Sequence record: OZ346212.1
Length of the DNA stretch: 64,000 bases
Strand: one strand, 5' to 3'
From: a phage
The notes under the pieces: generated by a model
What the model saw: the letters and a program-made list of their open reading frames with translations, nothing else
The model's database searches: none
Told to the model about the DNA's origin: nothing
Shown here: positions 14,635 through 64,000 of the stretch, in pieces
How the letters are laid out: each line of letters opens with the position of its first letter
Numbering within the stretch: position 1 is the stretch's first letter
Made by a program: the position numbers and the translations under genes

Positions 14635-14664
14635 ATTATATATAGATCTGGTGGTGGCGTCAAG
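14635..14664 (-). promoter_or_regulatory. sigma70-like promoter on - strand (TTGACG-N18-TATAAT)
   Basis: Reverse complement of 14659..14664 is TTGACG and of 14635..14640 is TATAAT. Confidence 0.55.
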
Positions 14665-38605: not shown

Positions 38606-38634
38606 TTGACAACAGTCATAGGGCCTACTATAAT
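38606..38634 (+). promoter_or_regulatory. consensus sigma70 promoter (TTGACA-N17-TATAAT) with inverted repeat AGGGCC/GGCCCT flanking the -10
   Basis: Perfect hexamers at 38606 and 38629. Confidence 0.7.
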
Positions 38635-52698: not shown

Positions 52699-52944
52699 AT
52701 GAAAAGCAATAAAGGTTATAACGGTTACAAAAACAAAACTCATTGGAATGTAAGCCTTTGGATTAATAACGATGAGTCATTGTACCGGTTGGCCCAAGGA
52801 TTTATTAACGCTAATGCTAATCGTAATGATGCGGCGCGGGATATGATGCTTTTTCTGGAGCTAACCGGACAAGATAAGACCCCGGACGGCTTCAAGTACA
52901 GCACTACGGCGATCCGTGCCGCGATGGTTGGAATGAAACACTAA
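52699..52944 (+). CDS. hypothetical small protein (81 aa)
   Basis: SD AAGAAGAGG upstream; last + strand gene before convergent intergenic region. Confidence 0.6.
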   Translation: MKSNKGYNGYKNKTHWNVSLWINNDESLYRLAQGFINANANRNDAARDMMLFLELTGQDKTPDGFKYSTTAIRAAMVGMKH

Positions 52945-53259
52945 AAGCACATAGCCGCCAGATCTCAGAATTTACGTACGCTCACCAGTCTATAGCCTGC
53001 TAAGTATTTATTCCAACCATAGAATAACGGAATAGTCAATACCTGCATAAAATAATTATTCGTGTAAACTGCATAACATAAATCGGCTAGGATGTCAACA
53101 TTTTTCGTAAACAGCTCGAAATTATAACGGTGAGTTATAATAAACAGAGAAATCTTTAGTCGTCTAATGTTTACTGTACATTACTATACTGACTGGAATC
53201 ATTAGATGACTAAGAGAAAGATAAGAAATCATTAACAATGCAATTGTTTTATTCGTAAC

Positions 53260-53560
53260 AATAAGGCAACTATGCAAACGGATGGCATGGCGCGACGGAG
53301 TCGCGACATAATATAAAAGCAGTAACCATCACCCCCGTGATAGTTTGTCTGCAAACTATTAATCAGATCATAGTTGCCTTGTATTTAGTTAATCATGACA
53401 TAACAAGCAAGGCAACTATAGATCTGCTAATAGTTGCCCTGCTTTTATATTATGTCATAGATTATTAGCCTGTTAATTGTTAGTCAGTCAAATCAACAAC
53501 GTTATCATTTCAGTCTTTATTGTTGTTGATCGTTATTGTTATCATGCAAACGAATGGCAT
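53260..53560. repeat. repeat cluster in convergent intergenic region
   Basis: AAGGCAACTAT in forward (53262, 53411) and inverted (53372, 53432) orientation; hairpin TAGTTTG-tctg-CAAACTA; direct repeat TGCAAACG(G/A)ATGGCATGGC at 53273 and 53541. Confidence 0.6.
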
Positions 53561-53936
53561 GGCTTATCATTTTTGAGTAAACAATCTATACGTGAACAGT
53601 GAGGCAAGTTAGCAGCCGATAGATTAGATATTAACCTGCAGACTTCTGACCGTCTAGACGTCTAAACGCCCACACAACAAGGATTATACATACAATACTG
53701 AATGTAAACAGGGCCGCAAAAATGCTACCATACCACAGATTGTAAATTTTTCATGCAGCACTTGACAAAGAGGAGAACTTAATTTTATCAGGATAGGCAA
53801 GAATGTCAAGGCATGACTGCTCACTAAACAAGCAAACAGTCATGTGTGGGAGGTAAGTGATTGTGGTGGTAGGAAATTTAGTTGAAAGATGTGTTATAGG
53901 TGCTTCCAGCACTTTAGCCGGGCAGCTAATTGTGTG

Positions 53937-54152
53937 TCAGTCCAGCGGTTCATCCTCTACTTCACTGAAATCAATGTTCATGGTCTCTTCCCAACCATCG
54001 ATCTCAGCACAAGAGTGGAGTTCTTTAGGGTTTACTCCTAAAGCCTCAGCAACAGAGTCTATATTTAACACCTCTGGCAGGTATGATTCATCAAATTCAA
54101 GGTAAATCAGGCCACGAGTGTTGTCAGCTCCACCAAATATTTCTATCTTCAT
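53937..54152 (-). CDS. hypothetical acidic small protein (71 aa)
   Basis: SD GAGGAG upstream on - strand. Confidence 0.6.
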   Translation of the reverse strand: MKIEIFGGADNTRGLIYLEFDESYLPEVLNIDSVAEALGVNPKELHSCAEIDGWEETMNIDFSEVEDEPLD

Positions 54153-54273
54153 AAAATCTCCTCTGGAAATGAGAGTGTGAACAGGGTTTTATACGTCCCA
54201 ATGCACAGGAATTATGCACGTTTTCCTCTTCAGGCCATGCTTTAGCATGAGGAACCTGTGTGGGCTCGGTGCT

Positions 54274-54486
54274 TCATAGTCTACCACCTCTGAACTCTTC
54301 GTGCTCAGGCATAATAGAGAACCAGATATCTACGATGTCCTCCCACGTCAGGTCATCAGCCTCAGGATCTGTCTGGGACGAAGATGAAGAGTCCTCAGAA
54401 TCTAAGTTTTCCTCTTTAACTGGCTCATCCAAGGGACATATGGTCACTCCTTCGGATGTCTCTTCAGATGCATGTGTGTTGATCAT
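54274..54486 (-). CDS. hypothetical highly acidic small protein (70 aa)
   Basis: ORF in - strand block; weak SD. Confidence 0.5.
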   Translation of the reverse strand: MINTHASEETSEGVTICPLDEPVKEENLDSEDSSSSSQTDPEADDLTWEDIVDIWFSIMPEHEEFRGGRL

Positions 54487-54791
54487 GTTCCACCCGTGAG
54501 TATTCCGGCAACAGCTGCTATGGACGTAATGATCATCAGGATCACCACTAAAACTTCGGACAATGTTCTCATTGTGTACTCCATATTCTACAAACTATGT
54601 GTGGATACTATCACTGGATCGGTAATGTGTCAACAGAAACGCCGCGAGGGTTTGGTTAAAATCCGAGCGTATGGTGATTTGGGTCAAAACGGACGTGCGT
54701 TCTCGCTACGCTCGAAAGAGAGATTTGTTTGTAGGAAGCTCTTAAACGCTCTGTAATGAGATTATCTGTCCAAGGTATGCAATCGTGCACC

Positions 54792-54821
54792 AGATAAAGA
54801 AAAGGACGCCACAGAGCGTCC
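54792..54821 (-). terminator. rho-independent terminator on - strand
   Basis: GGACGC-cacaga-GCGTCC with U-tract on the - strand side. Confidence 0.6.
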
Positions 54822-54846
54822 TAGGTGTCTTAAATTTGATATTTTG

Positions 54847-55146
54847 CTATACCCATGAGGGCTTATCAAGGTTGGAGTAGCTGAAAGGTGTCAAAAGGTG
54901 ACTGTCAAAATCTCTCAAACTATCTAAATCTTTTTCCTCGTCCTGACACCATCTGTGCCTACATTTATTGTTGTAGTGCATAGAATGCATAGCGTTCTGC
55001 AACTTAACAGGTACAAGTGATTCAGGAGTAGATAGTATTGTTGGGTATGCCAGAATCACCTCAAACAGTGGAAACACATCGAAACTAAAGTCTACCTCTG
55101 CAGAGGTTGATGGCATATAGGAGTATTTAGCCGCCTTTGTAGACAT
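54847..55146 (-). CDS. hypothetical protein (99 aa)
   Basis: ATG 55146 with SD GAGGTGG preferred over the first Met of the track ORF. Confidence 0.55.
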   Translation of the reverse strand: MSTKAAKYSYMPSTSAEVDFSFDVFPLFEVILAYPTILSTPESLVPVKLQNAMHSMHYNNKCRHRWCQDEEKDLDSLRDFDSHLLTPFSYSNLDKPSWV

Positions 55147-55154
55147 AATCCACC

Positions 55155-55481
55155 TCACACAGGTTTGATAATACCTTTACCGAATAATTCTTCGTATCTA
55201 ATCTTATCCGGATCCCACTCTTGGATAATTTCGAAGACAATATCCAACCCAGGGATAATCACTTCTCCAGTGTCAAGTTTGGCAAGAACAAAACCAGAAG
55301 GCTGAATGGTTTCCCAGTTGCGCCGATTGGAATAGAAGACCTCGAAAATATCGCCGACCTTTATCTGTTGATCAAGATGTTCAAGATTCTCTTTCATATA
55401 GACGCAGCGGATTTTTCGTGCAGGCCATAGACCACCTGCATCACGTTCATTTAGCTCTTTTACAGTAATCGGTATACCCAT
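55155..55481 (-). CDS. hypothetical protein (108 aa)
   Basis: SD AAGGAG upstream. Confidence 0.65.
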   Translation of the reverse strand: MGIPITVKELNERDAGGLWPARKIRCVYMKENLEHLDQQIKVGDIFEVFYSNRRNWETIQPSGFVLAKLDTGEVIIPGLDIVFEIIQEWDPDKIRYEELFGKGIIKPV

Positions 55482-55504
55482 CTCAAATCTCCTTCATAGA
55501 TAGT

Positions 55505-55530
55505 AAAGAGGGGCCCAAGCCCCCCTCTTT
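55505..55530 (-). terminator. GC-rich terminator hairpin after gene 55535..55840
   Basis: AGAGGGGC-ccaa-GCCCCCCTCT, U-rich on the - strand side. Confidence 0.55.
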
Positions 55531-55534
55531 GTCA

Positions 55535-55840
55535 TCATTCTACAGAGCGTTTGAACAGAATGTCTGCCTCAGACATGTGCTCAACCTCTTCTTCGATTTT
55601 AGCGCGACGTTTTTCAGCCTCATAGCGAATATCGAACTCGGTAGCCACCAGAGATTTGATGAATTTAGGAGAATACAGGTGATCCTGCTTCTCAACGAGA
55701 ATGATATCCTTAATGGCATCTTTCAGATCTTTAATCTGAAGTTGGAGTTCTACCAGTTCTTCGATTGTTTTGCGAAGGCGATCACGCTCTGCAGTGTCAG
55801 AAGGAAGAGAGGTGAACAGTTCAACTTTAGATTTAGCCAT
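55535..55840 (-). CDS. hypothetical coiled-coil protein (101 aa)
   Basis: SD AAGGAGAC upstream. Confidence 0.65.
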   Translation of the reverse strand: MAKSKVELFTSLPSDTAERDRLRKTIEELVELQLQIKDLKDAIKDIILVEKQDHLYSPKFIKSLVATEFDIRYEAEKRRAKIEEEVEHMSEADILFKRSVE

Positions 55841-55868
55841 AGTAAGAGTCTCCTTATGTTGTTTTAAA

Positions 55869-56120
55869 TTAACGTTCTACAAAAATACCGTTCAGTTCAA
55901 TAACCAGGAATTTCTGGTCTTCACTATCGTCTCGTGCCAGCACCTCACAGACGTATCGGTCATCCCCATCATCATCGCAGTCAAATACAAGACTGAGGAC
56001 TTTATCATGGTAAACCTTCGCCACTACCGCCTCGTAAGTATTGCCGATTGTGAATCCAAGATAATCTCCGATGCATTTGACAACAACATGGTCTCCAGCA
56101 TTTAAGTCAATCTTCGTCAT
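55869..56120 (-). CDS. hypothetical acidic small protein (83 aa)
   Basis: ATG 56120 with SD AAGGAG preferred over track start 56186. Confidence 0.55.
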   Translation of the reverse strand: MTKIDLNAGDHVVVKCIGDYLGFTIGNTYEAVVAKVYHDKVLSLVFDCDDDGDDRYVCEVLARDDSEDQKFLVIELNGIFVER

Positions 56121-56275
56121 TACTGCGCTCCTTGGGTAATAATACTGTATGTAAAACTTTAACCAGAGATGTGAATAACGCCCCAAAACACACCGATAGC
56201 GCTAAAACAGACAAGGCCATCATTAAAGCTTCAGTAAAATCAGTCATTCCTCACCTCTTGTTAGCCACTATACTA

Positions 56276-56539
56276 TCATTTATCCTTTTCGTCAAGAACT
56301 TTTTTAAATCTTTCAGGGATATCTCCCGTTCTTAGATAGTTCATGACCTCGCAAGGTTCCCACTTGAATTTCTTACAGAGCAGGGCGGCTGAGATTGTTT
56401 CATTGCGAAAAGAAAGGATATTAATATCCCACTCTGAGAACCCCAACTTCCGAAGGGTAGCTACAGAAATCCTCACCGCAACCCAGCAGCAAAAACATGC
56501 AACAAACGCCACTGCTACAACCCACATCAGGATGTTCAT
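56276..56539 (-). CDS. hypothetical membrane-anchored small protein (87 aa)
   Basis: SD AAGGTG; N-terminal hydrophobic helix ILMWVVAVAFVACFCCWVAV. Confidence 0.6.
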   Translation of the reverse strand: MNILMWVVAVAFVACFCCWVAVRISVATLRKLGFSEWDINILSFRNETISAALLCKKFKWEPCEVMNYLRTGDIPERFKKVLDEKDK

Positions 56540-56628
56540 ATAAGCACCTTACTGAAATACAAGACACAGTGTTAAGGTTACTGACCAGCAAATAATTAGC
56601 AGGACCATTGCAACCTTGGCAAGATTTA

Positions 56629-56916
56629 TCATAGTGCCTCTAAGATTTCATATCCTTCAGGTCGAAATACAAGCCACTCCGTGGCTCCGTTTGGTCGATA
56701 CGCTTTATACAGAACAACCTGATCTCGGCACATGCACATGGCTACATAGTTTTCATCCACACCTGCAGCCTGCATTGCATCTTCTTCTCCGGCAACTGCT
56801 TTGCTTACAACTTCCTTGGTAGGTAGGTGTGCGATCAGCTCGTCACCATCATTAATTCCAAAATGACTGAGTTCTCCATTGGTATCTTTAATCTTAATCT
56901 TAACCAGATCTTTCAT
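56629..56916 (-). CDS. hypothetical small protein (95 aa)
   Basis: SD GGAGAAAG; start overlaps the stop of gene 56916..57245. Confidence 0.6.
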   Translation of the reverse strand: MKDLVKIKIKDTNGELSHFGINDGDELIAHLPTKEVVSKAVAGEEDAMQAAGVDENYVAMCMCRDQVVLYKAYRPNGATEWLVFRPEGYEILEAL

Positions 56917-57245
56917 TAGTCTTTCTCCAGGTTCAAAGGTCCTAAGATTTCATATGCCAGATTAGAAGTTACCAGAGGGTCTTCTGCATCTTTAGTATTG
57001 TACCACCCGTGAATAACCAGAGTCCCACTTTGTTTCATATCCAACTGGAACTGTTCTGCAGTTTCCTCATCCAGCTCCAAGATTTCCATAAGGTATTTGA
57101 TGTTAGGAAGGTATGCAGCTGTTACAGTTCCCTCCACCAAACCTTCGGGCCAACCTACATCCGGATGACAAGTAGGAACCAGGTTGGTCAACTTAATGGT
57201 GTACGCTTTTTCTGCACGAGCCTTCAGTAACGGGTCAATCTTCAT
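56916..57245 (-). CDS. hypothetical protein (109 aa)
   Basis: SD GAGGAGG; translationally coupled. Confidence 0.6.
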   Translation of the reverse strand: MKIDPLLKARAEKAYTIKLTNLVPTCHPDVGWPEGLVEGTVTAAYLPNIKYLMEILELDEETAEQFQLDMKQSGTLVIHGWYNTKDAEDPLVTSNLAYEILGPLNLEKD

Positions 57246-57595
57246 TATTCGTCCTCCTCTTCGGTGCCTGCTTCCAGTAATAAGTTAAGAATATCTTCTG
57301 CACAAGGCTCATAGAACTCTTGGCCTTCATTATCGATGATTTTGTAGTCATCTCCACGAATAATCAGGGGATCACTCTCAAAATTATCGAGACCTTTAAC
57401 AACGACAACACGATCGATTGCCATCATTGTAAGAACTTTATCGACATCTTCCTCTGCTACACCATACTGCAGCAGAATGTCTTTGGTAGGAGGAACAGCA
57501 TCCACCACAACGCCGTTACCAAAACCTTCTGGAAGTTTAGCTAAAATATCTTCCGGAACCACATTCACATCAAAACCGGTAATTTCTACTTTCAT
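57245..57595 (-). CDS. small acidic protein, MK(I/V)K family A (116 aa)
   Basis: MKVEITGFDV...LPEGFGNGVV resembles products of 57596..57856 and 59020..59289. Confidence 0.6.
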   Translation of the reverse strand: MKVEITGFDVNVVPEDILAKLPEGFGNGVVVDAVPPTKDILLQYGVAEEDVDKVLTMMAIDRVVVVKGLDNFESDPLIIRGDDYKIIDNEGQEFYEPCAEDILNLLLEAGTEEEDE

Positions 57596-57856
57596 TTACA
57601 GCACCTCTTCGTCAACTACTTCATAAAAATGGCCTGGGATTGCAATAGCGTTCTCACCTTCACCTGCAAACACAGTTCCGTCAAGAATCAACATCATAAG
57701 AATTTCTGTAATATCCTCTTCCGGAACGTTGCCAAAACCTTTAATCAGCTCGTAGGTTGGAATATTTACATCTAAGATGTCACCATCTTTAGAACGGAAA
57801 TCAACACCGTCCTGAATCTCTGCCGTTTCAAGGTTTTTCAATTTAATCTTCATCAA
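57596..57856 (-). CDS. small acidic protein, family A paralog (86 aa)
   Basis: SD AGGAGAC; MMKIKLKNLE...IKGFGNVPEED. Confidence 0.6.
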   Translation of the reverse strand: MMKIKLKNLETAEIQDGVDFRSKDGDILDVNIPTYELIKGFGNVPEEDITEILMMLILDGTVFAGEGENAIAIPGHFYEVVDEEVL

Positions 57857-57932
57857 TCGGTCTCCTGTCTTGTTAAGATGAAGGTATTATTTCACACAGG
57901 GTTGGCGTTGTCAACACCTGTGTGCAAGAAAA

Positions 57933-58328
57933 TTACTGAAACAGTGCGGATAAATTACCTTCTGGTGGGAACTTATCTGCCAAAAACGGTGTTAGCACAG
58001 TAGCCTTCTGAAGATCTGGGGTCCACTCGTTGTTCAGAACATCCCAGTAGTACGCAATGTTGCTGTGTGGGTGCCGCATTACGAACTTTTTCCCTTCGTA
58101 GTCGTCTGAAACCTCTACAGAAGAAATAACAACAGAATCTTCAAGGGTTTCTTCATAGAAAGATCCCCCTTCAAATTTCCAACGAGATGCAAGAGCCCCT
58201 GCCTTGAACGCTGCAGATAACGGACTGTCGGCAAGAACATACATTTCTTGCACTCTGTCGCTGCGATCTTTGCTTCTTACGTTGTATACAGTATCTGAGC
58301 TATACTCAACACGGTATAGGCTTACCAT
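57933..58328 (-). CDS. small protein, family B paralog (131 aa)
   Basis: SD GAGGAGG; ...RHPHSNIAYYWDVLNNEWTP... aligns with ...HPDSRVKHYWNSRTKTWTP... of 60140..60538. Confidence 0.65.
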   Translation of the reverse strand: MVSLYRVEYSSDTVYNVRSKDRSDRVQEMYVLADSPLSAAFKAGALASRWKFEGGSFYEETLEDSVVISSVEVSDDYEGKKFVMRHPHSNIAYYWDVLNNEWTPDLQKATVLTPFLADKFPPEGNLSALFQ

Positions 58329-58660
58329 TACCGCACCTCCTCAATAACTTCCACATCTGAACCTACCACAAATGCAAAAGGACAGGTTTCATGAAAGACA
58401 TCTGGATCGCCGCCAAGCTTGCTAACAATCTCTCCACCACTAATAAACACAAGCTCACCGATATTCATCAGATTGCTGAAATAGTAACCATAATGATTAA
58501 AGAATGCAGCAGGGTCAGGTAGACTGGTAGCCTCAAGCACTACATCGGTTGAGGTTACTTTCTTATCATAACCTCTCGCCTTTTGAGATGCAAGATCTGC
58601 AGAATCCTCAGGAGACCGGAGATGCACAGGAATTGTTTCACCAATAAAGCGTACTTTCAT
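58328..58660 (-). CDS. small protein, family C-like (110 aa)
   Basis: ATG 58660 preferred; C-terminus ...VGSDVEVIEEVR resembles family C endings. Confidence 0.55.
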   Translation of the reverse strand: MKVRFIGETIPVHLRSPEDSADLASQKARGYDKKVTSTDVVLEATSLPDPAAFFNHYGYYFSNLMNIGELVFISGGEIVSKLGGDPDVFHETCPFAFVVGSDVEVIEEVR

Positions 58661-58664
58661 ATTA

Positions 58665-58928
58665 TCACCCAACAACCATAGCTTCAAAAGGAGTCATGAA
58701 CGAATAAACGGCATCATCATCTGCTTCAGGGAATGCTCCCAAAGACTTCATATCTGAACCCTTGACAAATACAAGGTTTTGATCAAAGGCTTCTTGGGGG
58801 TCAATCCGATACATATTTCGTAGAATATCGCTTACCTCCTCATCAAGAGGTGAGTATGCTGTGCACGTTTTTCCGATCAAGCTTTGAGAATCAGGGTATC
58901 CACCTGAAGTTTTAAAATAAACAATCAT
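58665..58928 (-). CDS. hypothetical small protein (87 aa)
   Basis: SD GAGGTGA upstream. Confidence 0.6.
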   Translation of the reverse strand: MIVYFKTSGGYPDSQSLIGKTCTAYSPLDEEVSDILRNMYRIDPQEAFDQNLVFVKGSDMKSLGAFPEADDDAVYSFMTPFEAMVVG

Positions 58929-59019
58929 ATAGTATCACCTCTGGTAAGAGATTGGGATTCCTTTCCCACAAATAATTACAAATCTTCCTTATCGAGGAAG
59001 TATGCTAATCCAAGCAGGA

Positions 59020-59289
59020 TTATTCCTCTACAATCTCATACACATCAGGAGTTACAATCAACTCTTCTCCGTTACCCGGTGCAACAAACACCACCAAACC
59101 TTCAGGTGTGTGCTTTTTAGCCATCTCGATAACATCTTCTCGCAGAGCTGGCTCCATCAGATCAAAACCTTCACCCAGGGCATCACGAACCACCTTCATA
59201 TAGTCAACTGGTTGTGCTTCAACAATCATGCCTTCAACCAGTCCACAGTTTTTGTCTGCCAGCTCAGTTTTGAATAATTTAATTTTCAT
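59020..59289 (-). CDS. small acidic protein, family A paralog (89 aa)
   Basis: SD GAGGAGAC; MKIKLFKTELA...ALGEGFDL. Confidence 0.6.
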   Translation of the reverse strand: MKIKLFKTELADKNCGLVEGMIVEAQPVDYMKVVRDALGEGFDLMEPALREDVIEMAKKHTPEGLVVFVAPGNGEELIVTPDVYEIVEE

Positions 59290-59426
59290 TTAGAGGTCTC
59301 CTCAATTATTTGATATTAATAGCCGTAACCTAACACATTAACTACAACTGCGATTGCAAACATAATTTCAAAGCATGCAATCTCTACATTTGGGACTAAT
59401 TTCTTAATCACACCCATTGTAGCACC

Positions 59427-59747
59427 TCATTCTCCAAAGTCAATCTTTACTTTGCCTTTCCCCTTACCTTTCTTTCCACCGCATTTAGCCAGCTGACGTG
59501 CTGCAACATCTACCATACGGTCAGTTGCCTCGTAAGCATCACTGCCTTTAGCCTTGGCAATAACTTCTTTTCCAGAATTGTCAAAAATGAACGCCATAAC
59601 TTCCTGGTGATCATTTTCAACTTTTACACTTACACGTGCATAGTTAACAGAGGGATGTAAACGCTCCAGCTTGGACATTTTGCGGGAAATAAAAGATACC
59701 ATACCTTCTGTGATTTCTACATTGTTGCCAGTGATTTCAATTTGCAT
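59427..59747 (-). CDS. ribosome hibernation promoting factor / RaiA (S30AE family) homolog (106 aa)
   Basis: MQIEITGNNVEITEGMVSFISRKMSKLERL...VKVEND...GSDAYEATDRMVDVAARQLAK parallels bacterial HPF/YfiA along the whole length; Lys/Gly-rich C-terminal tail. Confidence 0.75.
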   Translation of the reverse strand: MQIEITGNNVEITEGMVSFISRKMSKLERLHPSVNYARVSVKVENDHQEVMAFIFDNSGKEVIAKAKGSDAYEATDRMVDVAARQLAKCGGKKGKGKGKVKIDFGE

Positions 59748-59830
59748 AACGTGTTCCTTTTAAGGAAGAGGGAATAACTATCTCTCTTTGAAAACAATGA
59801 TACTAAATCTGAAGCGTTGTGTCAACAGTT

Positions 59831-60122
59831 TTTACAGCTTGTTGTCGATAGTTTTTAAAATATCCACAGCAAGATCTGCCATTTTTCGAACATACTCTGC
59901 AAACTCAACAGGATCCTTGATCAAAGAATTCACAGGGTCGTACCCTAGAGCGTTTAAAATGGCTGCAGCATCTACAACCTTCTCATCATTTGCGAAGATC
60001 TCTCCGTCAAACTTGTAGGTCTATTTTGAGTCAACCTTAGCAGAGCAGGGTTTGTCCATGCTTGTTACACCATCGTCTTTAAACTCTCCTGCGTTATCAA
60101 TATTTAGAATTAAATCCATCAT
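59831..60122 (-). pseudogene. disrupted small gene: in-frame TAG then a second stop and a frame change
   Basis: ATGATG at 60122 with SD GTGAGGTG; 33 codons to TAG (60021..60023); 26 more codons to TAA; protein-like sequence continues in the +1 frame to the stop at 59831. Confidence 0.4.
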
Positions 60123-60139
60123 GGTGACACCTCACTGTT

Positions 60140-60538
60140 TCAGTTTAGCTTTTCTTCAACAACCCCATAACTTGGGGCAGAGTCAAGAGCTTTCTGGTTT
60201 AAAAGTGGCGTAGCAGAATCTGCAAACGGTGTCCAAGTTTTTGTTCTGGAATTCCAGTAATGCTTCACTCTGGAATCTGGATGCACTATAACAAAAACTT
60301 TTTCACTTGTCAACACATTAATTTCTTCTACACCCTTGCTGATAATTTCTCCGTCATAGCCCCCAGTCTGGTATCCTTCGTACCAGGTTCTTGCATAGGC
60401 ATAGCCAGCCTGCCAGCATGCAGCCTCCTCCGAGGTGGAGACTACGTAGAAGTCTTTCTCAAATTCCGGAATACGCCCTTGCTTTACGCTCCAAGCTCCG
60501 CGAATTTTCATTGTTACTTTGAAAAGCTTGTTCTTCAT
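60140..60538 (-). CDS. small protein, family B paralog (132 aa)
   Basis: Coupled to upstream gene; aligns with 57933..58328 product. Confidence 0.65.
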   Translation of the reverse strand: MKNKLFKVTMKIRGAWSVKQGRIPEFEKDFYVVSTSEEAACWQAGYAYARTWYEGYQTGGYDGEIISKGVEEINVLTSEKVFVIVHPDSRVKHYWNSRTKTWTPFADSATPLLNQKALDSAPSYGVVEEKLN

Positions 60539-60539
60539 A

Positions 60540-60794
60540 CTACCGCTCTACAATCTCTACGTCTGTTCCTACACCGAAGGCATAGTAATGTTCTTCCCCA
60601 AAGTAATACTTGGGGACACCCGCTTTGATCAGATCTAACCCGCGAATAAATACCACACCGTGTGATACAGTGGAATGCTTCTGACGCACAGGATCGTTGT
60701 CAGGCAACCATTCAAAGTACACCGCAGGTACAACCTTTCCCTTCAGGAAGGATTGTCCCAAGTAGACGTTAGAATCAAGAATTTTAACCTTCAT
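60540..60794 (-). CDS. small protein, family C paralog (84 aa)
   Basis: SD GGAGGAC; MKVKILDSNVYLGQSFLKGKVV aligns with MMKVKVLDSSFYIGQEPLVGKVF of 60784..61011. Confidence 0.65.
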   Translation of the reverse strand: MKVKILDSNVYLGQSFLKGKVVPAVYFEWLPDNDPVRQKHSTVSHGVVFIRGLDLIKAGVPKYYFGEEHYYAFGVGTDVEIVER

Positions 60795-61011
60795 TCTCGT
60801 CCTCCACTATCTCTGCATCCTCACCAAGGGCAAAGTTGTAGGTCCACTGGCTGTCAAAGCAGTCCTGAGATGCACCAGCGGCAATAAGATCTGCACCTTT
60901 TATTTTTAAAAGGTCAGGATAATCTTCGTTAGGGATAGCGGTAAACACTTTCCCCACTAAGGGCTCCTGACCAATATAGAAGCTTGAATCTAAAACTTTA
61001 ACTTTCATCAA
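60784..61011 (-). CDS. small protein, family C paralog (75 aa)
   Basis: SD GAGGGAG; overlaps downstream gene start by 11 nt. Confidence 0.65.
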   Translation of the reverse strand: MMKVKVLDSSFYIGQEPLVGKVFTAIPNEDYPDLLKIKGADLIAAGASQDCFDSQWTYNFALGEDAEIVEDENEG

Positions 61012-61295
61012 CGGTCTCCCTCAGGCGGTTGTGGGACGTAAACACTGTTACGAATATCGTCAGCAGTGTAGTAATAAGTGGTTCCAACCCTATCTCGGGC
61101 TGCAATGTACTCTGCTATACCAACAAGTGCCATTGATTTGGTGGCGTATCTTCCCCACTCGTTAGCTCCCCAGTAGAATTTAGACCAGTAGGGAATAAGA
61201 CCGAACAAATATACCTTTTGACGAACTTCCCAGTAAGTGCCTTTTCCGACAAGTTTAAACTCTACTTCACTACTGTTAATCTTTTTCATTATCAA
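61008..61295 (-). CDS. hypothetical Trp/Tyr-rich small protein (95 aa)
   Basis: SD GAGGGAG; start overlaps stop of upstream gene. Confidence 0.6.
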   Translation of the reverse strand: MIMKKINSSEVEFKLVGKGTYWEVRQKVYLFGLIPYWSKFYWGANEWGRYATKSMALVGIAEYIAARDRVGTTYYYTADDIRNSVYVPQPPEGDR

Positions 61296-61588
61296 TCTCC
61301 CTCTACCGTGGTCGGATTGTCAGTAAGAAATTGAGCATTGGCTGGAGGCACGCCTGACATTTTCCACACAACCATAAGTTTATAACCAGGCACTCTATTA
61401 AGTGCAGATCGAGTAGAGTTTGTGCACGTATACTTTCGCTTTCCAAACCCGTTCTCCATCATAATCCAGTACCCAGTATCTTTGTCACCAGGTATCGGTA
61501 GACCACCTTCATCAACCCACTGAATTGACCACGGCACGATGGCTACAGCTTTATATTTAAACTTTTTAAACCACTCAAAAAGTTTCAT
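61292..61588 (-). CDS. hypothetical small protein (98 aa)
   Basis: ORF coupled to downstream gene. Confidence 0.6.
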   Translation of the reverse strand: MKLFEWFKKFKYKAVAIVPWSIQWVDEGGLPIPGDKDTGYWIMMENGFGKRKYTCTNSTRSALNRVPGYKLMVVWKMSGVPPANAQFLTDNPTTVEGD

Positions 61589-61888
61589 AATTCAGCCCCG
61601 CATAGACATAATCACTATAAATAGGCAAACAATGAATCCGAATGCCACGCCACCCATAAACGTTAATATTGATGCAATCATAGTCAATCAGCCTCGCCTG
61701 GCAACTCTTCTACCTTAACATGCCGAAAAGTGTTACCGTAATGGTTGATCCATGACATCAGCTCACTTTCTTGCTCTTCCTCTGGGATGAACTCTCGAAT
61801 ACTGACAAGTTTTAAGAAAACCTAATCACAATCTGCACCCATTCTACCAGACAGACAATAGTGCTTCATAAAAACCCTCCCGCCCGGT

Positions 61889-62083
61889 TTAGAATATTGC
61901 TTCTTCCATTGCGCCTGAGAGCAACAAAGAGGTGATCTGGCTAACATTCATCTCAGACTCTACTTCCTCCCCTTTGAAAGGTTCGCGGCAGAATAGGACT
62001 GTTTCAGGACTTTTACTTCGAACAATATAATACAAATCATTCAATGTGTTGTAGTAATAAGTGTTAAAACGTAAGTTTTTCAT
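61889..62083 (-). CDS. hypothetical small protein (64 aa)
   Basis: SD AAGAGGA; followed by a weak hairpin and about 200 nt with no credible ORF. Confidence 0.55.
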   Translation of the reverse strand: MKNLRFNTYYYNTLNDLYYIVRSKSPETVLFCREPFKGEEVESEMNVSQITSLLLSGAMEEAIF

Positions 62084-62367
62084 TTTCTAGTCCTCTTCTT
62101 AGATTTTTGGGGAGAAACGCTTTCTGCAATACGAGACAGACGTTCTTCTGAAGCCTTACCTACTCCAGGTTTTTTGAGTGGATTATCTTTATGACCACAA
62201 TCCAACTGGATATTGGATACCTCTCCAACTTTGTAAGTCAATTCTAGCAAAAGGTTGTCGTCCTTGTCAAATGTTTTTACGATAAATTTTTTATCGTTCT
62301 CCTGAACTTCATATCTGGTACCTGCAGTATACAGCATGGTGCCATCAGCATAGGATATCCAGATCAT
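62080..62367 (-). CDS. hypothetical basic small protein (95 aa)
   Basis: SD AAGGAGG; coupled. Confidence 0.6.
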   Translation of the reverse strand: MIWISYADGTMLYTAGTRYEVQENDKKFIVKTFDKDDNLLLELTYKVGEVSNIQLDCGHKDNPLKKPGVGKASEERLSRIAESVSPQKSKKRTRK

Positions 62368-62711
62368 TGAGCCTCCTTTTGCTGCAACAGCATTAACTCT
62401 TTGTTAGAGATCTTTACTGCTGTTTTTATTGTTCCATCTTCACGAAACCACGACCAGAACTCTACAGTGTCACCACTATCAAGTAAAGCATGCCCATGGT
62501 AAAAATCTTTGTCCTTAGACAGTTTCTCATCTATATCTGCATCAACACATTCGTGATCCAGAGCATTTTGCCTGAACGCATCGGTTATGCCAATGCACGC
62601 CTTGCTCTCAAGACTGGTATATCCGATATCTTTTAATTCAGTTTCCCAAGTCCAGTACCCTATAAAAGCTAAAACAGCTACCCACAGTAATAACGTTTTA
62701 ATCTTTGGCAT
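62364..62711 (-). CDS. hypothetical exported/membrane-anchored protein (115 aa)
   Basis: SD AAGAGG; N-terminal hydrophobic segment TLLLWVAVLAFIGYWTW. Confidence 0.6.
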   Translation of the reverse strand: MPKIKTLLLWVAVLAFIGYWTWETELKDIGYTSLESKACIGITDAFRQNALDHECVDADIDEKLSKDKDFYHGHALLDSGDTVEFWSWFREDGTIKTAVKISNKELMLLQQKEAQ

Positions 62712-62773
62712 TCTCTCTACCTCTTTCTTAGTTTATTTCACTATGGCACATCCTTTGTGCCATATCTCAACTA

Positions 62774-63238
62774 CTACTTAAATAGTAGTTCAAAATAGTG
62801 CAAAATTAACAGAAGTTGAACTACACCTAGTGCAACGGCGAGTATGTTAATCTTAGAATCGAAAAACTTCTTAACTTTTACTCTAAAAGGTTCCTTAATG
62901 TCCTTTACGATCCTATCTATAGATGACCTCATATCTCTGATTACCATCCTGAACATTAAAGACGGATGCTCCCCCATCTCCGTAACGGAATCGAAAACAT
63001 ACTCTCTTCGGTCATAAGGGCCGCCAGCTCTGCGTATTAACCTCTCCACAGAGACCTCGAACGTCACACCTGTAACGTAATCATCTATAACAAGTCGTGA
63101 CGGGTCTTTACCTTTACTATCAAGAGGTATCAAAGTTATCTTTCCAGATTTTGTTAAAATTTCCCCTTTTTCAAGCAAGGTGTACCAATGCTCTCTGCCA
63201 AGACTGTTGAGGCACGTTTTTACATATTTAACAAACAT
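62774..63238 (-). CDS. hypothetical protein with C-terminal transmembrane helix (154 aa)
   Basis: ATG 63238 with SD GAGGGGTGA preferred over GTG 63244; C-terminus ILAVALGVVQLLLILHYF. Confidence 0.55.
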   Translation of the reverse strand: MFVKYVKTCLNSLGREHWYTLLEKGEILTKSGKITLIPLDSKGKDPSRLVIDDYVTGVTFEVSVERLIRRAGGPYDRREYVFDSVTEMGEHPSLMFRMVIRDMRSSIDRIVKDIKEPFRVKVKKFFDSKINILAVALGVVQLLLILHYFELLFK

Positions 63239-63240
63239 CG

Positions 63241-63426
63241 TCACCCCTCATCGCACGTCTGATATAACCACTCTATAAAATCTTGATACCATTCGCCCTC
63301 TGAGCGCTCCGTAGGCCAATAATCTTCACCCTCTCGTGCATTAAAATCTGAGTATTCAACTTTCCACTCCTTTACCAGCTCGTGGAGAAGGTTTTCAGCC
63401 TGCTCTAAAGATTTATTTTTTACCAT
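63241..63426 (-). CDS. hypothetical acidic small protein (61 aa)
   Basis: ATG 63426 with SD AAGGAG preferred over TTG 63444. Confidence 0.55.
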   Translation of the reverse strand: MVKNKSLEQAENLLHELVKEWKVEYSDFNAREGEDYWPTERSEGEWYQDFIEWLYQTCDEG

Positions 63427-63509
63427 TGCTGTCTCCTTTTTCAAGATAGTTATACATCAGAACTGCACCACCTAAGATGGCTACCAGTAACAATATCCCA
63501 GATAGCATC

Positions 63510-63662
63510 TCAATAAACATGGCTTGAAACACTGGAAGGTCTCCCTAAATTAACGCACCATTTTAAATACATGCTCTTTTCCCATAAAGGTGCCTGGCTA
63601 AGATCTGCGTAGAACGCAATCTCTTTAAGAACAGTATAGATAGTTTTAGGTGCGGTCTCCAT
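63510..63662 (-). CDS. hypothetical small protein (50 aa; start uncertain)
   Basis: Internal ATG of track ORF 63510..63698 with SD AAGGAG; a competing 35-aa hydrophobic ORF overlaps in another frame. Confidence 0.35.
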   Translation of the reverse strand: METAPKTIYTVLKEIAFYADLSQAPLWEKSMYLKWCVNLGRPSSVSSHVY

Positions 63663-63873
63663 CCCTACTCTCCTTCCTGATATTCTTGTAGTAATCAACT
63701 AGGCACATTATTACGATGAAGATAACAACAGGCCAAAAAGGTGCAGCAGTGATGATGGTGATAAAATCATCAAACTTCACCCTTCGTCTGGACACGATGC
63801 ATACACCTGTCAAGAATACCGCTGTTATAACGGACATTACCAGGTAACCTATTAGCACAACATTTATACTCAT
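63646..63873 (-). CDS. hypothetical small membrane protein with two transmembrane helices (75 aa)
   Basis: SD GGGAGG; hydrophobic helices VVLIGYLVMSVITAVFLTGVCIV and PVVIFIVIMCLV. Confidence 0.6.
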   Translation of the reverse strand: MSINVVLIGYLVMSVITAVFLTGVCIVSRRRVKFDDFITIITAAPFWPVVIFIVIMCLVDYYKNIRKESRDGDRT

Positions 63874-63903
63874 TGGTCCTCCCTTTGTAGGTTAAATTGT
63901 ATA

Positions 63904-64000
63904 CTACAAATGGTCGCTGAGGGTGTCAAGAAAATTATCCCGTTCTTTCTCAGAGTTTTCATGTGTGTAGCTGAAAAACATATCGAGAATAACCTTATTG
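63904..64000 (-). CDS. 3' end of a - strand gene whose start lies beyond the window end
   Basis: Frame open from the window edge to TAG at 63904..63906; no RBS before the internal ATG at 63981. Confidence 0.3.
   Translation of the reverse strand, partial: NKVILDMFFSYTHENSEKERDNFLDTLSDHL

Follow-up and report, generated by a model that had tools for sequence, protein, structure and literature searches.

The "hyperplastic regions" of T4-like phages are runs of small, tightly packed genes of obscure role, several of them encoding small membrane proteins. Small-gene clusters of this kind in T4 are read by the host RNA polymerase from sigma-70-type promoters and are dispensable in the laboratory. 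Here we analyzed a similar block of small genes, which occupies positions 53937..63873 on the minus strand of a 64,000-nucleotide (nt) stretch of the phage sequence record OZ346212.1, referred to below as the window. The closest described counterpart is found in phage rV5, for which Kropinski et al. (2013; PMC3606486) reported "88 mainly small ORFs" (open reading frames) adjoining a non-coding gap, four transcription units with sigma-70-type promoters throughout, and no homologs of gp33, gp45 and gp55, the proteins needed for T4 late transcription. In the same subfamily, the Certrevirus phages CB7 and CR3 carry a putative early region in which sigma-70-like promoters concentrate amid short hypothetical ORFs (PMC7344957). 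A further point of comparison is the pre-early (first-step-transfer) region of T5, with its small host-takeover genes and toxic products.

The window derives from a Vequintavirus, an rV5-like E. coli myovirus, and its closest match is phage magaca (98.9% identity). The 10-kb region finds matches in 122 phage records, 116 of which cover at least 80% of it at 90–99% identity; all are Vequintavirus records. Its counterpart in rV5 is ORF129–163. All 35 products, which we number g01 to g35 by ascending coordinate, were located in the rV5 sequence in the same order and at 84–100% protein identity, and magaca, Murica, Bas59 and rV5 are all annotated with this series of small genes on the identical strand. 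The genes form the promoter-distal 10 kb of a long leftward transcription unit (rV5 "genes 82–163", with the block at the unit's end), whose upstream genes encode a ClpP-like protease, a methyltransferase, PhoH and an anaerobic ribonucleotide reductase. We conclude that the block is the already annotated tail of small genes that closes the replication-side transcription unit in rV5-like phages, a known region and an ordinary one for a large lytic phage.

Unlike the T4-like regions, the block varies little in gene content or sequence within its genus, and it showed no homology to T4 genes at the sequence level. The Certrevirus genomes contain homologs of g06 at 41–42% identity; a concatenated tblastn search with all 35 products (E ≤ 1e-3) gave no further matches there. 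As for T5, the Vequintavirinae share its daunorubicin sensitivity (PMC13250531). However, the T5 arrangement requires fixed genome ends, whereas rV5 is reported to be circularly permuted and related Certrevirus genomes behave likewise in BAL-31 digestion; no homology to the T5 region was found. Because of the circular permutation, a pre-early role in the T5 sense, which had been raised for these genes, is unlikely.

The explanation that we favor, and consider probable, is that the block is a promoter-distal tail of small genes arranged in early or middle sigma-70 sub-operons and encoding accessory host-interaction proteins. According to this model, host sigma-70 RNA polymerase would transcribe the block early or in mid-infection as several sub-operons, with starts at conserved sigma-70-like promoters that precede g35, g19, g13, g08 and g03 and ends at two intrinsic terminators, after g06 and g04. 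Within the sub-operons, translation would be coupled through overlapping or abutting stop and start codons with Shine–Dalgarno sites. The products would act as accessory proteins that tune host physiology (translation, the envelope or other targets) under natural conditions; selection would keep the genes in nature, and many would be dispensable on laboratory E. coli K-12. The initial annotation, made from the window sequence, had proposed host takeover. This is the most plausible reading, as the position at the end of a replication and nucleotide-metabolism unit and the conserved promoters make an early or middle host-interaction role plausible, but the role itself stays inferred.

Gene models were built from stop-to-stop ORFs, Shine–Dalgarno motifs and the annotation of relatives. 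They comprise 35 genes, rather than the roughly 28 first counted, with products of 29–154 amino acids (aa; median 87). As had been stated, nearly all fall below 135 aa (34 of 35, the exception being g31), and the strong ribosome-binding sites were also found: a Shine–Dalgarno core of at least 4 nt lies 4–10 nt upstream of the start codon at 31 of the 35 genes. Packing is tight, with 21 of the 34 junctions at 9 nt or less: 12 overlaps (−1, −4 or −11 to −23 nt), one abutting pair and eight gaps of 1–9 nt. Five further gaps measure 17–28 nt and eight measure 53–274 nt. The description of nearly every gene as overlapping its neighbor's stop was therefore right about the packing and overstated about the overlap. 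An isoelectric point (pI) below 5 is predicted for 18 of the 35 products, and eight contain a strongly hydrophobic 19-residue segment (Kyte–Doolittle mean ≥2.1), with a weaker segment in g30; the earlier description of highly acidic or single-helix proteins thus fits. The block encodes eight or nine very small single-helix membrane proteins and around twelve more small proteins that are confined to the genus and lack known relatives, and known domains are absent from 32 of the 35 products. Among the products, g19 alone passes in Pfam, which agrees with the statement that none apart from a homolog of the ribosome hibernation factor HPF is recognizable; g06 and g31 are partial exceptions.

Candidate expression signals are consistent with the proposed sub-operons. 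The block contains nine sigma-70-like sites (at least 10 of 12 consensus positions), every one of them on the coding strand. Five of these lie directly upstream of genes, those ahead of g35 and g08 at 63929..63901 and 56295..56267 (from the start of the first hexamer to the end of the second, minus strand) and those ahead of g19, g13 and g03 at the positions listed in Table 1; two coincide with annotated rV5 promoters. The promoter hexamers are invariant in five genomes at a synonymous divergence (dS) of 0.2–0.35, and the intergenic gaps, hexamers included, are more conserved than synonymous sites. The hairpin that follows g06 and the stronger terminator behind g04 match terminators in deposited annotations. 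No T4-late-like motif occurs upstream of the block genes, including g31, the two minus-strand matches falling inside coding sequence. Between the g04 terminator and the g03 promoter lies an 80-nt non-coding core (54638..54717) that varies at a single site among five genomes with 20–35% synonymous divergence. The core lacks coding periodicity, and its folding showed nothing unusual in a search for structured RNA (z = −1.1 and −0.5). A hidden gene in the 274-nt gap from g04 to g03 was rejected, as the variable sites show no three-base periodicity (14/13/8) and a relative has disruptions in each of the two candidate ORFs.

The genes are real and under purifying selection. The block-wide ratio of nonsynonymous to synonymous divergence (dN/dS, or omega) is about 0.12, being 0.11 against Aya (dS 0.35) and 0.14 against EI-SP-GF (dS 0.20). 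Most genes have an omega of 0.15 or less; constraint is strongest on g06 and g07 and weakest on g02, g20 and g35, together with the very short g03 and g08. The block is intact in about 97% of genomes, and of 118 records with a match to the g22–g35 segment, 117 cover at least 80% of it. Variation in content among close relatives is limited to rare deletions (Bas59, MaxBurger, V18 and an indel at g26). Such constancy, along with the low dN/dS and the 116 of 122 records that cover the whole block, contradicts the term "hyperplastic" used in the initial annotation. Beyond the genus, only g06 matched other genera by tblastn, the small genes being otherwise absent from related genera.

The natural losses indicate that much of the block is not needed in the laboratory. 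Bas59 (EduardKellenberger, BASEL) carries a natural 3.8-kb deletion (window ~60226–64033) that removes g22–g35 and parts of two flanking genes and fuses the last 29 codons of g21 to the upstream gene; the junction shows ~15 bp of microhomology (locus L005 8017..8031). This phage grows to normal titers, and g22–g35 are thus nonessential under these conditions. From the same segment, MaxBurger (Bas54) lacks about half and V18 about 18%, while Murica and Aya lack 86 bp (61602..61687) holding g26, with an overlap of ~10 nt at the junction. The sequence of g26 is also present in magaca and rV5, although it is unannotated in both.

In the present genome, amber codons interrupt g20 and g27, which likewise points to laboratory dispensability. 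Both codons are private, occurring in 0 of 57 and 98 matching phage records, respectively; they are two of the 30 private substitutions in the block, and the best matches all differ at exactly that base. They would fit if the two genes are dispensable or the phage grew on a suppressor host, and may also be sequencing errors. Hypermutation was rejected as their source, since 10 of the 30 private substitutions are G>A and no mutagenesis signature is apparent. In the rV5 record, g10 is read in three frames, and these breaks could be sequencing error because rV5 was sequenced at 3.6-fold Sanger coverage.

Several observations weigh against early or middle sub-operons of host-interaction genes. Consensus matches are modestly enriched over the whole 14-kb scan (45 against 33 ± 7 in shuffled sequence), and g05–g04, which lie between the two terminators, have no obvious promoter of their own. 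The searched literature yielded no transcriptome or transcription-start-site data for any rV5-like phage, so that timing and promoter use are deduced from consensus matches. The rV5 ortholog of g31, gp133, is among the predominant proteins in virion mass spectrometry (PMC3606486), which would fit late expression of at least g31. No block product has a demonstrated host target.

The presence of paralog families, as claimed in the initial annotation, was confirmed at levels well beyond chance by all-vs-all clustering with BLASTP and phmmer, for which 30 protein shuffles gave a best chance BLASTP E value of ~1e-3, and by leave-one-out profile searches in which the 724 ORFs of the window served as background. 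All of the first assignments hold, and g10, g11 and g16 were added. Family A comprises g10–g13 and, more weakly, g17; family B comprises g14 and g21; and family C comprises g15, g16, g22 and g23. In family C, g22 and g23 match each other at E = 2e-15 and g15 matches either at ~3e-4; the core profile recovers g15 at 1.6e-7 and g16 at 7.8e-5, with the best background ORF at 0.7. The family B pair matches at E = 1e-9. Within family A, the pairs g12–g13, g10–g12 and g11–g12 score 2e-4, 0.004 and 0.011. A family A profile built without g12 recovers it at 2.6e-8, and one made from g10, g12 and g13 picks up g17 with E = 0.003 and g11 with E = 0.007; in the one run whose listed matches reached a background ORF, that ORF scored 0.31. 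PHROGs groups families B (phrog_7379) and C (phrog_5009, g16 weakly), not A, and the word "paralog" is absent from the rV5 paper (PMC3606486).

The family members, 11 of the 35 genes, all lie inside 4.4 kb around g19, the HPF gene. The order C-C-B is seen twice (g23-g22-g21 and g16-g15-g14) and hints at duplication of a cassette, which is only an inference because the C members do not pair one-to-one across the two copies. Merging A and C into one superfamily was rejected (profile–profile probability 38%, over only the 25 N-terminal columns), as were links between any of the three families and the remaining 24 genes, HPF included (all probabilities ≤7%). No relatives of the three families were found outside rV5-like genomes, either in the phage collection or among 5.8 billion and 1.84 billion proteins. 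An AlphaFold2 (AF2) model of g12, computed from an alignment of five paralog groups, shows a small beta-barrel with helices (pLDDT 81) and a weak resemblance to the SH3/KOW fold. Its one significant match in a viral structure library is an uncharacterized 86-aa protein of Vibrio phage Vc1; neither model nor match assigns a function. The family B model was unusable (pLDDT 48). Several GenBank records label g17 a "sigma 54 modulation factor", as a second copy beside the true HPF gene. An S30AE identity for g17 was rejected, given no Pfam or NCBIfam S30AE match and its membership of family A, and the label is probably a propagated annotation error.

Two products outside these families match named protein families. 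The proposed HPF homolog, g19, matches PF02482 (Ribosomal_S30AE) at 56.7 bits (cutoff 23.7; E = 4e-15) and TIGR00741 at 56.8 bits (cutoff 40.9). Its best solved relative is E. coli HPF (PDB 2rql; residues 1–90, E = 4e-15), and its length is that of short HPF. Scores fall below the equivalog cutoffs, with 65 bits against 125 for NF007780 (HPF) and 23 against 158 for NF007654 (RaiA). By profile scores, g19 is a member of the HPF/YfiA family, closer to HPF than to RaiA and not an equivalog, and a putative short HPF-type ribosome-binding factor. It differs from E. coli HPF (YhbH; PDB 2rql, 6h4n) in being phage-encoded and in its Lys/Gly-rich C-terminal tail, KCGGKKGKGKGKVKIDFGE. The second product, g06, matches the profile of PHROG 639, named "transcriptional regulator" (E = 1e-21, residues 1–100 of 101). 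It is the only block product with matches in phages of other genera (41–59% identity, concatenated tblastn, E ≤ 1e-3), with homologs in ~110 phages of Seunavirus, Certrevirus, Mydovirus and other genera and ~100% conservation within the genus. No Pfam, NCBIfam or PDB relative of g06 was found, a GapR-like score of 0.04 being below the cutoff. It is best described as a predicted small helical protein of a subfamily-wide "regulator" family.

We also considered that the block is an anti-defense island, whose small acidic proteins and expanded families would inhibit restriction, abortive infection, CRISPR or signaling-based defense; this had been proposed in the initial annotation and we regard it as unlikely. 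Known DNA mimics and defense inhibitors are often small and very acidic, and many block products share this character, such as g12 with a net charge of −21 in 116 aa. The lineage-specific paralog expansion is real, and the restriction to one genus fits fast-evolving host-interaction genes. However, Pfam, PHROGs and PADLOC revealed no link to known defense or anti-defense families, PADLOC giving only a weak match to g01 and nothing meaningful for phage-borne defense genes. Known anti-defense loci tend to vary between close relatives, whereas this block is stable in content and 90–99% identical in ~120 genomes. In BASEL, the Vequintavirinae were "exceptionally susceptible" to restriction–modification (RM) systems and commonly hit by abortive infection (Abi) systems (PMC8594841). 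In its raw table, Bas59, which lacks g22–g35, plates like Bas57 and Bas58 on 10 RM/Abi systems, the phages not being isogenic. Plating efficiencies of the three phages are ~0.1–0.8 with EcoKI, ~0.5–1 with EcoCFT_I and ~1e-4 to 1e-3 with EcoRI; EcoRV and EcoCFT_II allow no plaques, and RexAB, PifA, Old and Tin give ~1. The host range of Bas59 is also that of Bas57 and Bas58. These literature data thus show no protection by g22–g35 against the 10 systems, as far as non-isogenic phages can be compared. BASEL covered 11 defense systems only, with most known systems outside it, which leaves the proposal some support.

A more specific idea, which we consider very unlikely, is that the 11 paralogs form a duplicated genus-specific cassette of small acidic beta-barrel proteins that would act with the phage HPF on host translation or another single host machine. 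It stems from the clustering of these genes in the order C-C-B ... HPF ... A-C-C-B-A-A-A-A and from the weak SH3/KOW resemblance of family A. If true, it would make the block a coherent takeover module and not a miscellany.

It is highly improbable that the block, or the part containing g31, encodes late virion-associated proteins, that is, particle components or morphogenetic factors. The PHROG of g31 is named "virion structural protein", but g31 is missing from Bas59, which is viable and forms plaques at normal titers, and it is thus not a required stoichiometric particle component. Its C-terminal hydrophobic helix would allow for co-purifying membrane material as an alternative source of the mass spectrometry signal. 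The account of rV5 virion mass spectrometry names no other block product, T4-late-like motifs are missing upstream, and the block lies distant from the structural module and on the opposite strand. We conclude that g31 is either a particle-associated protein that the phage can spare or a membrane protein that co-purifies.

That the genes are decaying or spurious ORFs, non-functional filler and chance gene calls, is scarcely credible: the two amber codons, the natural deletions, the three frames of g10 in rV5 and the 32 products without known domains would fit, but the block-wide dN/dS of 0.11–0.14, the Shine–Dalgarno sites at 31 genes, the retention of the block in about 97% of genomes, the protein-level conservation of the paralog families and the confident family A model all speak against it.

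With a small-gene tail of accessory host-interaction genes as the preferred explanation, the block is a further example of lineage-restricted small phage genes that are kept by selection and dispensable in the laboratory. Its significance beyond its own phage group is small. Phages of the rV5 type are, however, common in E. coli phage cocktails and collections, and as ~4 kb (g22–g35) can be lost without visible cost on K-12, the site may be open to engineering or to a payload. For toxicity or interaction screens, reasonable first targets would be the three paralog families together with the phage HPF.

Table 1. Genes and candidate regulatory elements of the block, in the predicted direction of transcription.
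Feature	Position	Strand	Description
g35	63646..63873	-	75 aa; membrane protein, 2 hydrophobic segments; rV5 ORF129
g34	63510..63662	-	50 aa; rV5 ORF130
g33	63413..63532	-	39 aa; GTG start; single hydrophobic helix; rV5 ORF131
g32	63241..63426	-	61 aa; acidic; rV5 ORF132
g31	62774..63238	-	154 aa; C-terminal hydrophobic helix; rV5 gp133 ortholog; PHROG 7821
Hairpin, g31 to g30 gap	62742..62764	-	9 bp; conserved; no T-run; z = −4.9 vs shuffles
g30	62364..62711	-	115 aa; N-terminal hydrophobic segment
g29	62080..62367	-	95 aa; basic
g28	61889..62083	-	64 aa; diverges among relatives
g27	61684..61869	-	61 aa; PHROG 2381; private amber TGG to TAG, 61822..61824, W16*
g26	61592..61681	-	29 aa; hydrophobic mini-gene with Shine–Dalgarno site
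g25	61292..61588	-	98 aa; basic; PHROG 8932
g24	61008..61289	-	93 aa; basic
g23	60784..61008	-	74 aa; family C; PHROG 5009
g22	60540..60794	-	84 aa; family C; PHROG 5009; allelic divergence among relatives
g21	60140..60538	-	132 aa; family B; PHROG 7379
g20	59832..60122	-	96 aa; acidic; private amber TGG to TAG, 60021..60023, W34*
Sigma-70-like promoter, g19	59797..59825	-	TTGACA-17-TATCAT; rV5 P144; hexamers conserved in 5 genomes
g19	59427..59747	-	106 aa; short HPF-type ribosome hibernation factor homolog; Lys/Gly-rich tail
g18	59316..59417	-	33 aa; hydrophobic mini-protein
g17	59020..59289	-	89 aa; family A, most divergent member
g16	58665..58928	-	87 aa; family C, new member
g15	58328..58660	-	110 aa; family C
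g14	57933..58328	-	131 aa; family B; PHROG 7379
Sigma-70-like promoter, g13	57886..57914	-	TTGACA-17-TGnAATAAT; extended -10; rV5 P150
g13	57596..57853	-	85 aa; family A
g12	57245..57595	-	116 aa; family A; net charge −21; AF2 pLDDT 81
g11	56916..57245	-	109 aa; family A
g10	56629..56916	-	95 aa; family A; three frames in rV5 record
g09	56276..56539	-	87 aa; N-terminal hydrophobic helix
g08	56107..56247	-	46 aa; hydrophobic helix
g07	55869..56120	-	83 aa; acidic; highly conserved, omega ≤0.02
g06	55535..55840	-	101 aa; PHROG 639 "transcriptional regulator"
Intrinsic-terminator-like hairpin after g06	55509..55525	-	T-rich tail; annotated in rV5 and Murica
g05	55155..55481	-	108 aa
g04	54847..55146	-	99 aa
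Intrinsic terminator after g04	54803..54822	-	8-bp stem and T-run
Sigma-70-like promoter, g03	54605..54633	-	TTGACA-17-TAGTAT with TG; follows near-invariant core 54638..54717
g03	54483..54572	-	29 aa; hydrophobic mini-protein
g02	54274..54486	-	70 aa; very acidic, Ser-rich; least constrained, omega 0.36–0.53
g01	53937..54152	-	71 aa; acidic; final gene of unit

The conserved hairpin between g31 and g30 may be an RNA processing, stabilizing or attenuating element. At the other end of the block, residues 29–51 of g01, VLNIDSVAEALGVNPKELHSCAE, give the weak PADLOC match, to a "control protein" (E = 0.0035, 23 residues); within this very acidic 71-aa protein, the segment resembles a helix-turn-helix motif. 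Perfect TTGAC-N17-19-TATAAT sites occur four times in the window against 0.22 expected, at 38606, 43723 and 47010 on the plus strand and at 14635 on the minus strand. The three plus-strand sites lie in the gene array that converges on the block from the other side, which suggests that this array is also read from strong sigma-70-type promoters.

The non-coding region 52944..53937 lies between these two converging transcription units, and its rV5 counterpart is a 2.6-kb "non-coding" region. Compared with rV5, the present genome differs in the two private amber codons and in the loss of 1.1 kb of this adjacent region; the missing piece corresponds to magaca L001 1176..2278 in a comparison of five relatives, and the adjacent 171 bp (53607..53777) are inverted. 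Rfam returned no family anywhere in the window, this region included. Short repeats sharing the core ATAGTTGCC, both direct and inverted, are abundant in the region, which also has two minus-strand sigma-70-like sites (53809..53782 and 53768..53739) with no ORF downstream. Finally, 18 "Campylobacter phage" records (MG0656xx; 16 with Campylobacter jejuni as host) are 94–98% identical to E. coli rV5-like phages, and their Campylobacter host assignment looks doubtful.

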